Assembly: GCF_003334315.1 (NCBI RefSeq)
Contig: NZ_QOWR01000004.1
DNA from: Escherichia coli
Lineage (GTDB): Bacteria; Pseudomonadota; Gammaproteobacteria; Enterobacterales; Enterobacteriaceae
Length of the DNA: 64,000 nt
Direction: 5' to 3' (one strand)
Part shown: positions 21,578 through 24,534 of the stretch, piece after piece
Position numbering within the stretch: the first letter of the stretch is position 1
Layout of the letters: every line of letters begins with the position of its first letter
Notes under the pieces: model-generated
The model's database searches: none
Told to the model about the DNA's origin: nothing
What the model saw: only the letters and a program-made list of their open reading frames with translations
Program-made: the position numbers and the translations under genes

Positions 21578-21600
21578 CATCCGTATCGGTGTTATCCACG

Positions 21601-21632
21601 AAACGGCGTTGAGCAATCGACGCCGTTTTTTT
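21601..21632 (+). terminator. galU rho-independent terminator
   Basis: AAACGGCGTTGAGCAATCGACGCCGTTT hairpin followed by T-run. Confidence 0.8.
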
Positions 21633-21670
21633 ATAGCTTATTCTTATTAAATTGTCTTAAACCAGACAAT

Positions 21671-21697
21671 AAAAAATCCCGCCGATGGCGGGATTTT
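21671..21697 (-). terminator. hns rho-independent terminator
   Basis: AAAATCCCGCCATCGGCGGGATTTTTT on minus strand just downstream of hns stop. Confidence 0.8.
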
Positions 21698-21720: not shown

Positions 21721-22134
21721 TTATTGCTTGATCAGGAAATCGTCGAGGGATTTACCTTGCTCATCCATTGCTTTTTTGATTACAGCTGGAGTACGGCCCT
21801 GGCCAGTCCAGGTTTTAGTTTCGCCGTTTTCGTCAACGTAGCTATATTTTGCCGGACGCTGAGCACGTTTAGCTTTGGTGCCAGATTTAACGGCAGCAAG
21901 GCTATTCAGCAGTTCGTTCGGGTCAATACCGTCAGCGATCAGCATTTCGCGATATTGCTGCAGTTTACGAGTGCGCTCTTCAACTTCAGCAGCAGCCGCG
22001 CTTTCTTCTTCGCGACGTTCGTTAACAACAACTTCTAATTTTTCCAGCATTTCTTCCAGCGTTTCAAGTGTACATTCTCTTGCCTGCGCACGAAGAGTAC
22101 GGATGTTGTTCAGAATTTTAAGTGCTTCGCTCAT
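21721..22134 (-). CDS. hns: nucleoid-associated protein H-NS
   Basis: 137-aa [44 protein letters not shown]... Confidence 0.97.
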
Positions 22135-22738
22135 TGTAGTAATCTCAAACTTATATTGGGGTGGTTTGTTGAGGTAATAATAGAGCCTTAAATTCAGTTG
22201 TGCAATAGCCAGGAATGTAAGGAATTCAAAATTGTTCTTTATTTTGTGCCGCCAATAAATATCTTTTCATAAAATTAGCCAGAAAAGACGCGGCATATAG
22301 CCCTATTTGTACCGATGATTTCGCAGCTCGTGAGGTTAAAACTTCCTGATTCATGTCACATTTTATGGGGAGATTATCGTAGGCTGACGACCTTTCAGTC
22401 TTCTGTATTAGTCGTGTTTACGAGAATTCCCTATTAAGCGAATGATGAAAAGTAGAACAGTCGCAATAAGAGCAGGGACTTAGTATTGCACTATCTCCTG
22501 GAGGTCAACAGAGGGCTATTACTTGCGCAACAGATTAAAGATTGTGAATAGTTACCAGCAGTCATTTACCCGCTTATAACAAGCGAGGCAGTTGTAATGA
22601 TAGCTCAGAAGGATTATGCAAGGCTTCGTAAGGGAGAACGCATATACCCACTTCTGTGCATACTGTTGAGCTGAAAAACTGACGAATTATGATAAACTCC
22701 AGCCAACTTTATTTCATATCATTGAGGGCCTGTGGCTG

Positions 22739-23356
22739 ATGGCACAGCTATATTTCTACTATTCCGCAATGAATGCGGGTAAGTCTACAGCATTGTTGCA
22801 ATCTTCATACAATTACCAGGAACGCGGCATGCGCACTGTCGTATATACGGCAGAAATTGATGATCGCTTTGGTGCCGGGAAAGTCAGTTCGCGTATAGGT
22901 TTGTCATCGCCTGCAAAATTATTTAACCAAAATTCATCATTATTTGATGAGATTCGTGCGGAACATGAACAGCAGGCAATTCATTGCGTACTGGTTGATG
23001 AATGCCAGTTTTTAACCAGACAACAAGTATATGAATTATCGGAGGTTGTCGATCAACTCGATATACCCGTACTTTGTTATGGTTTACGTACCGATTTTCG
23101 AGGTGAATTATTTATTGGCAGCCAATACTTACTGGCATGGTCCGACAAACTGGTTGAATTAAAAACCATCTGTTTTTGTGGCCGTAAAGCAAGCATGGTG
23201 CTGCGTCTTGATCAAGCAGGCAGACCTTATAACGAAGGTGAGCAGGTGGTAATTGGTGGTAATGAACGATACGTTTCTGTATGCCGTAAACACTATAAAG
23301 AGGCGTTACAAGTCGACTCATTAACGGCTATTCAGGAAAGGCATCGCCACGATTAA
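22739..23356 (+). CDS. tdk: thymidine kinase
   Basis: 205-aa ORF with P-loop MNAGKST. Confidence 0.96.
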
Positions 23357-23637: not shown

Positions 23638-24534
23638 TCACTTAAGAGGAGCGGCACTATGTTTCACAGGATAACGGGTTTTTGATATCTTAACCGACCT
23701 CGGCCTTGATGGTCGGGGGCGTTTTGTTATGAACACCACTTCCAGAGCACCCCGAAGATGCTCCAGTCGTTTCGGGATGGTCCCTGGTGACGCCGTGTTT
23801 CCCAGCTCTATCATTTCTGATGCGATATTCTTCCACGCAGGCAGTAGCCAGTGGCGGTTACAACCCTTCTGGTTCAGCGTCAGCAGCAGGTCTTCGCTGT
23901 AAAAAAGTTTATCAAACAACGTAATAGAGTTATCCGGGATGGTGGCGAGCATGGAGTGGGCCAGCACAGTTTCGCTCTGCCGGTAAGGTGCGGTCACGGC
24001 ATTCAGCAGAATGTGACTTCCCAGGTTCATTAAGGCCACCAGACGCATAACCGGGTAGGCGTTCTGCCGCTTAGTGGATGTGTTGGCAGACCCATAATAT
24101 TCACGCAGCTCGGGTTTATCAGGTGTCCTGAACTGTGCGCCATCAATGGCAAAAAGTTGCAGGCCGTGCCAGTCATCCTTCAGGTAACGTTCCGCGCCCC
24201 TGTCTGTGCGGTCTGGCGGAAGAGCCATTCCACTGGGGCGGCCCCCACGCGCTGACGCGCCTGGGTGACAGCGCTGCGGGCCAGCAGGTTCATCCCCGCT
24301 TCGCCATCCGCGCTCAGGTTCAGACGGCGAACAACATCGGTAATTGGCTCATTGCACCACCATCCAGATAACCATGTCCCCCGGTAAACGACGGCGGCGA
24401 ACGGTCGCATGAGCAGAAAGCGTCAGGCAGTGTTGTATCCACTCGGTGGGAAGGTGTTCTGCAAATAGTTGTGCAGAGGGCGGAGGCATAAGCGGATGGT
24501 CACTGAAATCGAGCAGATCATTGAGAAGTGGCAT
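23638..24534 (-). pseudogene. insZ: IS4-family transposase pseudogene (three frameshifted fragments, C-terminus missing)
   Basis: consecutive minus ORFs 24349..24534, 24180..24410 and 23638..24228 in different frames, each resembling successive parts of the IS4 transposase (e.g. TVRRRRLPGDMVIWMVV, SAVTQARQRVGAAPVEWLFRQTAQ, LFAIDGAQFRTPD); gene name from memory of K-12 annotation. Confidence 0.7.

Follow-up and report, generated by a model that had tools for sequence, protein, structure and literature searches.

The hns–tdk locus

The divergent genes hns (21721..22134, minus strand) and tdk (22739..23356, plus strand) lie within the window, by which we mean the whole 64,000-nucleotide stretch of Escherichia coli DNA analysed here. 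Their start codons, the hns ATG at 22134 on the minus strand and the tdk ATG at 22739 on the plus strand, bound a spacer at 22135..22738. A preliminary description had put this gap at about 600 bp, and it is exactly 604 bp. We ranked it among the start-to-start distances of 19 divergent gene pairs in the curated K-12 annotation from 1.25 to 1.35 Mb (100 kb), which span 37–604 bp around a median of 219 bp; hns/tdk is the longest, and the second measures 392 bp.

The same 604 bp are found in K-12 (NC_000913.3, 1292923..1293526) at 99.0% identity, with six SNPs and no indels. Five of the six SNPs fall within 22309..22534, and all six lie outside the conserved ends. The −35, −10, discriminator, transcription start site (TSS) and footprinted H-NS site are identical, and there is no material difference between this locus and the K-12 hns regulatory region; the window comes from a non-K-12 E. 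coli and its spacer matches strain CP53 at 100%. The spacer is matched at a minimum of 95% identity in 5423 of 5426 complete E. coli genomes, and both the curated K-12 record and the sampled PGAP records leave it free of annotated features. It is an ordinary stretch of DNA, namely the control region of hns, which has been studied since the 1990s, with a short tdk promoter. Fourteen plasmid records in PLSDB also carry it (for example NZ_OL790696.1, NZ_CP134663.1 and NZ_CP141089.1). They range from 150 kb to 4.9 Mb, all are non-mobilizable and several are 4.8–4.9 Mb long, so that they look like mislabelled chromosomes or chromosome fragments.

The spacer had been described as AT-rich. This holds to a moderate degree overall, with a GC content of 0.397 compared with 0.496 for the window, but strong AT-richness is confined to the ~150 bp nearest hns (GC 0.28–0.36), the remainder varying between 0.36 and 0.50. 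There are no GATC (Dam) sites in 22135-22738, where about two would be expected by composition, a difference that is not significant alone. Downstream of tdk, a 196-aa ORF (23638-24228, minus strand) occupies the position of the ISZ/insZ transposase pseudogene of K-12, and this degraded IS remnant seems to be present in the window strain as well.

Promoters and leaders at the two ends of the spacer

Transcription of hns starts at an A at 22170, which gives a 5' leader of 36 nt (22135..22170, minus strand). In SMRT-Cappable-seq data, a full-length hns transcript at K-12 1292458..1292958 places the TSS at window position 22170 and the 3' end at 21670, just past a hairpin at 21673..21697. Kim 2012 lists an hns TSS at 1292181 (v2 coordinates) with 333 reads and a UTR of 36, and the accompanying 51-mer maps to 22170..22220 of the window. 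The leader is 0.94–1.0 identical even to those of Citrobacter and Salmonella.

The core sigma-70 promoter of hns lies at 22177..22205 on the minus strand, where it was located by a consensus scan together with its published description (PMC7601328). It consists of a −35 TTGCAC at 22200..22205, a 17-nt spacer, a −10 TATTAT at 22177..22182 and the discriminator TACCTC. The published promoter has a 17-nt spacer, C at −13, C at −4, −3 and −1, A at +2, C at +3 and A at +6, and these details fit exactly one place in the spacer, the core promoter with its start at 22170. Hexamers, 17-nt spacing and a TSS found in two datasets all identify a sigma-70 promoter, and the K-12 hns promoter likewise has Fis, H-NS and CspA sites and a ppGpp-sensitive discriminator. 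The preliminary description had envisaged a long leader. This expectation fails: the leader is 36 nt in two independent datasets that match the PMC7601328 promoter description, and that of tdk is 35 nt.

The core promoter is near-invariant in 70 species. Together with the leader and a proximal upstream element reaching to about −70, it forms a family-wide invariant block (22135..22240) whose mean identity to the window across the 70 spacers aligned is 0.8–0.98. Among sister Escherichia species, identity reaches 0.99–1.0, compared with 0.76–0.81 at tdk third-codon positions. On the other side of hns, the convergent galU–hns gap shows a weak Rfam similarity to the FnrS family (frnS) at 21596-21697, with 29.4 bits against a gathering score of 60 and E = 0.02. 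This similarity overlaps the hns terminator hairpin (21673..21697) and is most likely only the terminator stem.

At the opposite end of the spacer, a comparison of 79 spacers anchored on the tdk ATG reveals an extended −10 promoter, TG-a-TAAACT, at 22690..22698 on the plus strand. Most genera have TG-g-TACAAT, and the TG and positions −12, −11, −9 and −7 are near-invariant. From the conserved −10 we forecast a tdk start at ~22705, and SMRT-Cappable-seq gave 22704 (K-12 1293492), 6 nt downstream of the −10, defining a 35-nt leader (22704..22738, plus strand) that contains a conserved Shine-Dalgarno GAGGG at 22724..22728. The conservation pattern and the mapped TSS thus both identify an extended −10 promoter. 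As in other sigma-70 promoters of the TGn type, there is a TG-n hexamer with the expected conservation and no usable −35 was found; the E. coli hexamer TAAACT (4/6) is however weaker than the TACAAT of most genera. Over 70 spacers, 22660..22738 is conserved at the promoter, the Shine-Dalgarno sequence and the motif TTTATTTCA. The modules of promoter plus leader for hns and tdk together take up less than 200 bp, in line with the earlier remark that the spacer is longer than simple promoters need.

Two other placements of the promoters were rejected. The tdk promoter proposed by the scanner, TTGAGC-16-TATGAT, is 5 nt off the conserved register and does not fit the mapped TSS, and the hexamers picked from sequence by Shimada 2014 are far from both mapped starts. 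One of these picks, for a constitutive 'hns' promoter, is the match ATGAAA-17-TATCAT, for which the tdk −10 region doubles on the minus strand (22689-22717). It is placed 512 nt upstream of the hns start at 22170 and is not backed by TSS data; if active, this promoter would send transcripts into the spacer. Within the tdk transcript, at +6 to +19, TTATTTCATATCAT (22709-22722) matches the FNR consensus with three mismatches, and Escherichia, Citrobacter and Salmonella share its TTTATTTCA part. Older work reportedly describes an FNR-like site close to tdk.

Conservation of the spacer across Enterobacteriaceae

For a wider comparison, we fetched 80 tdk loci from Enterobacteriaceae, one per species, two of them on contigs too short to reach hns. 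The divergent arrangement of hns and tdk is present in every locus that reaches far enough, namely 78 fetched loci and the K-12 reference. Over the window and the 78 loci, the spacer measures 489–1750 bp (median 555 bp), and 49 of 79 are within 525–575 bp. Eight spacers are 879–914 bp long, ~350 bp above the family mode; their owners are Kluyvera, Pseudocitrobacter, one Citrobacter and one Enterobacteriaceae isolate. The extra ~350 bp are common within Kluyvera, have no Rfam match in the members tested and hold no convincing ORF.

An alignment of the 70 spacers of at most 720 bp shows four kinds of DNA: the conserved blocks at 22135..22240 and 22660..22738, a conserved island at 22386..22414, and a poorly conserved remainder. 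The remainder covers most of the hns upstream regulatory region (22241..22483, reaching to −313 in the literature), which is AT-rich and weakly conserved, and a fast-evolving distal stretch at 22415..22659. From the hns end to the tdk end, segment identities to sister Escherichia are 0.99–1.0, 0.79–0.89, 0.69–0.83 (island), 0.82–0.87, 0.76–0.79 and 0.91–0.94. The distal stretch is 0.76–0.87 identical to its counterparts in sister species, close to the synonymous rate, and cannot be aligned beyond Citrobacter; 22555..22650 within it is confined to Escherichia and close relatives. In comparisons with Citrobacter and Salmonella, identities are 0.41–0.56 for the central segments and 0.50–0.55 for tdk third-codon positions. 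Since central and third-codon identities are similar, the centre of the spacer (~420 bp) evolves at about the synonymous rate.

Base composition follows a more regular course. Counted from hns, mean GC over 70 species is 0.29–0.37 in the first 160 nt, ~0.45 at 161–200 and 0.35 at 241–320, and then rises toward tdk. Judged from these alignments, what is kept across the family appears to be composition and geometry, while the central sequence drifts, and the distal half would be constrained in length and composition and not in sequence.

The near-neutral divergence of the centre fits plain filler as well. The central ~420 bp, or at least 22415..22659, could be inert, perhaps a passive buffer between promoters in which at most length matters; such a buffer would keep the divergent promoters from interfering through supercoiling or RNAP collisions. 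The agreement of the distal identities with tdk third positions among sister species (0.76–0.81), the corresponding agreement for Citrobacter and Salmonella and the loss of 22555..22650 outside close relatives are all as expected of filler, as is the tolerance of the spacer for expansion to 880–915 bp and, in one species, for a 1.2-kb IS5. Inert DNA does not readily explain why no spacer in 79 species is shorter than 489 bp, why lengths cluster at ~550 bp across many genera, or why both the AT-rich profile and an island with constant spacing to hns have been retained. Given these features and the protein-binding and insertion data below, we regard filler as a possible but rather unlikely account of the centre.

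Published and predicted binding sites for H-NS, Fis, CspA, CRP and NagC

Autoregulatory H-NS sites had been suspected in the spacer, and one is well documented. The sequence TCCTTACATT, at 22214..22223 on the minus strand and ~−48 from the hns TSS, is a footprinted H-NS site (Lang 2007, Table 1). Exact copies occur in 67 of 79 spacers, where shuffles predict 0.1, and each lies 79–84 nt from the hns ATG; the autoregulatory region thus contains a conserved binding site. Autoregulation of hns by H-NS is itself cited in the literature. Published reporter constructs extend the regulatory region to −313 (window ~22483; PMC7601328), and another spans +12 to −540 from the TSS, with Fis, H-NS and CspA boxes drawn from primary papers. 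Sites for these three proteins in the hns upstream region are published, seven of them for Fis, the Fis and distal H-NS positions being taken here at second hand.

The affinity of H-NS for this DNA would be moderate. Lang 2007 describes the hns region as having several similar but no canonical high-affinity H-NS sites, and in the E. coli spacer we find no match to the canonical motif TCGATAAATT within two mismatches. In the genomic SELEX of Shimada 2014, the spacer is not among 987 H-NS sites, and RNAP holoenzyme binds it in vitro. With neither a SELEX flag nor a canonical high-affinity site, in vivo occupancy by H-NS may be modest. Binding that is moderate and titratable would suit a gene that measures its own product.

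A CRP site has been reported more recently. In a footprint-seq preprint of January 2026 (Table 1), ttCCTGAttcatgTCACAttt is listed among 'novel CRP sites' with an inferred Kd of 8.1 nM in vitro. The identical sequence is present in the window at 22343..22363, with its centre at ~22353, ~−183 from the hns TSS and ~−351 from the tdk TSS. The class I and class II spacings (−41.5, −61.5, −71.5, −82.5 and −92.5) are found from neither TSS, and CRP binding refers to in vitro conditions only. A high-affinity site of this kind, even if seen in vitro, counts against inert filler. The TCACA half-site is common to Escherichia, Citrobacter and Salmonella. Eleven loci of the Enterobacter/Lelliottia group carry a CRP-like 16-mer, TGTGACnTTTaCCgCA, which agrees with the half-sites at 8–9 of 10 positions. 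It lies ~210–228 nt from the hns ATG, at nearly the distance of the E. coli site, but here it is the opposite half-site that is intact; either convergent retention or coincidence could account for this. We rejected a cross-clade 'positional' CRP site, as the Enterobacter half-site TGTGAC is displaced by ~9 bp from the E. coli GTCACA and the resemblance may be coincidental.

A weak NagC site is predicted at 22238..22260. Motif scans of the E. coli spacer for the H-NS consensus, Fis, IHF, FNR, LexA, CCAAT and GATC gave nothing above shuffle expectation. The lack of any enriched motif class in E. coli is one more result that filler would predict.

A conserved island upstream of hns

The island at 22386..22414, located at about −216 to −244 from the hns TSS, is the only conserved element in the centre of the alignment of 70 spacers. 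Its family consensus is ATGGATAAATATCAACCTTTTGTATTAG, of which the E. coli copy keeps only the right half, TCTTCTGTATTAGTCG; the consensus GGATAAATATCAACCTTTTGTATTAG is intact in Enterobacter and Klebsiella. In 55 of the 70 spacers, the island lies 273 ± 6 nt from the hns ATG and 286 ± 39 nt from tdk. Because its distance is fixed to hns and variable to tdk, the island belongs to hns.

The island sequence is compatible with Fis, IHF and H-NS-like motifs at once, and it may correspond to a distal Fis or H-NS site already in the literature. A reading of it as a perfect IHF site is not supported by counts, the exact core WATCAANNNNTTR being present in only 4 of 79 spacers, which equals the shuffle expectation; many spacers are one mismatch off this core, and E. 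coli has no match within one mismatch. In E. coli alone, an imperfect inverted repeat at 22365-22434 spans the island and may be due to chance.

Insertion sequences upstream of hns

Independent evolution experiments have repeatedly yielded insertions of IS1, IS2 and IS5 at a distance of 75–258 bp upstream of the hns ATG. This zone corresponds to 22209..22392 of the window and overlaps the regulatory region at 22241..22483, and every reported insertion leaves the hns core promoter intact. In one study, IS1/IS3 insertions at this place accompany strong H-NS upregulation. That insertions into the hns-side half change hns expression argues against a passive buffer, at least for this half of the spacer.

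The genome of Phytobacter ursingii ATCC 27989 provides a natural counterpart of these laboratory insertions. An IS5-family element sits 133 bp upstream of its hns ATG (L025:1384-2577) and has an InsH-like transposase of 326 aa, GGAAGGTGCG terminal inverted repeats and a CTAA target duplication.

An IS placed between the upstream DNA and the core promoter would raise hns expression because the upstream DNA contributes to repression. Alternatively, the insertions might raise hns via outward IS promoters instead of lost repression. IS elements activate H-NS-silenced loci such as bgl. There, as at hns, an IS in AT-rich upstream DNA raises expression of the adjacent gene. In contrast to the cryptic bgl operon, however, the target here is the highly expressed and autoregulated hns, for which lost repression and an outward IS promoter are both possible.

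Search for small genes and RNAs

The length of the spacer had led the preliminary description to allow for small ORFs or regulatory RNAs, and a conservation analysis of small ORFs had been suggested. We followed all 14 ORFs of at least 10 aa in eight relatives (K-12, three other Escherichia, three Citrobacter and Salmonella arizonae). Candidates for a hidden small protein gene were a 25-aa ORF (22597..22674) with a well-spaced GAGG as Shine-Dalgarno sequence, a 42-aa ORF (22226..22354, minus strand), a 40-aa ORF (22315..22437) and an 18-codon frame starting with TTG (22523..22579). The last remains open in four Escherichia species, with GAGGG 7 nt ahead of its start codon. Upon comparison, no conserved ORF of at least 20 aa was found in the spacer, every one being broken in sister species: the 42-aa ORF has a stop in K-12 itself, and stops or frameshifts interrupt the 40-, 30-, 25-, 24- and 21-aa ORFs in sister Escherichia. 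Frames that survive in all relatives sit in the invariant promoter block.

The 18-codon frame was rejected as a gene because of its substitution pattern, with 3 synonymous and 14 nonsynonymous changes compared with ratios of 43:7 for tdk and 18:3 for hns. We also clustered 477 ORFs of at least 25 aa from the 79 spacers. The 'peptides' that recur are conserved DNA read in one frame, and the cross-genus clusters are conserved DNA blocks with unrelated starts and ends. The K-12 record includes small proteins found by ribosome profiling nearby (ychT, ymiC and ymiD) and none in the spacer, and neither TSS dataset has a start upstream of any candidate. Thus, although ORFs exist and some have plausible ribosome-binding sites, a small protein gene in the spacer is largely refuted already, and we consider it extremely unlikely.

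The spacer might instead encode an sRNA or a structured cis-acting RNA, or be pervasively transcribed from spurious AT-rich promoters. The binding of RNAP holoenzyme in vitro and the minus-strand promoter match in the tdk −10 region are in keeping with such transcription. In addition, 22361..22440 folds at −26.3 kcal/mol (z = −4.4), and none of 200 shuffles was as stable. However, the same stretch reaches only −10.5 to −15.7 kcal/mol in sister Escherichia, so that the fold is specific to E. coli and was rejected as a conserved structured RNA; its loss is not accompanied by compensating changes. Rfam returned no match for the spacer at E ≤ 10, and 20 orthologous loci gave none that reached the gathering score. 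There is no conserved terminator, and evolution of the centre at the synonymous rate also speaks against a functional RNA.

The mapped starts agree with this. Between galU and the ISZ remnant, both datasets show the hns start, one also shows the tdk start, and there is no further TSS, within the limits that SMRT-Cappable-seq depletes RNAs below 1 kb, being blind to most of them, and that Kim 2012 is shallow, so that weak or short transcripts could escape. The preliminary description had named a single hns start near the gene, with no other transcripts in the spacer, as the finding that would tell against its reading, and within these limits of depth and size both datasets return exactly that. 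The reservation on small ORFs and RNAs is therefore largely removed by conservation, substitution pattern, Rfam and fold tests; what stands of it concerns weak or short transcripts, and we judge an RNA product or pervasive transcription of the spacer to be very unlikely.

Discussion

We conclude that the spacer is, in all likelihood, a composite non-coding region made up mainly of hns upstream control DNA together with a compact tdk promoter. The ends of the spacer are compact promoter-plus-leader modules, for hns at 22135..22240 and for tdk at ~22660..22738. The remaining ~420 bp would serve mainly as upstream control DNA of hns, to which nucleoid proteins may bind via composition and shape and not via strict sequence. 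H-NS binds the footprinted site TCCTTACATT at −48 and would also bind AT-rich tracts further upstream, all of them non-canonical and probably of moderate affinity, and an excess of free H-NS would repress its own promoter. Fis would activate hns during growth and CspA in the cold, and CRP may contribute through its high-affinity (in vitro) site at −183. Direct evidence covers the core promoter, the TSSs, the H-NS footprint, CRP binding in vitro and the IS effect.

Comparable long spacers were described by Shimada 2014: csgD–csgB (755 bp), lrhA–alaA (920 bp) and nanC–fimB (1458 bp). Like these, the hns–tdk spacer is a long type-A (bidirectional) spacer with an RNAP-binding site, control by nucleoid proteins and a global regulator gene on one side. 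It differs in being shorter, in having one mapped TSS per gene and in lacking an H-NS SELEX flag. Furthermore, the regulated gene here encodes the silencer itself, and H-NS binding would then have to be titratable and not fully silencing.

Our analysis confirms the known picture of this region. To this picture it adds a family-wide map of constrained and drifting DNA and the exact assignment of the tdk promoter, and it largely removes the possibility of a hidden gene. The targets that remain are modest: the conserved island, the CRP site that was described only recently and lies at an unusual distance, and the reason for a stable spacer length despite sequence drift.

One tentative answer, which we consider unlikely though worth stating, is that the island and the neighbouring CRP site act together as a distal anchor of the local DNA architecture, at which a nucleoprotein loop of H-NS, Fis or CRP would be bent or bridged. 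H-NS sets the expression of hundreds of genes, so control of its level matters, and few adaptive mutations recur as reliably in the laboratory evolution of E. coli as those in this spacer. If this holds, the anchor would determine how strongly hns is autorepressed across Enterobacteriaceae, and it would explain both why length and position are kept despite sequence drift and why IS insertions that cut the anchor off are repeatedly selected.
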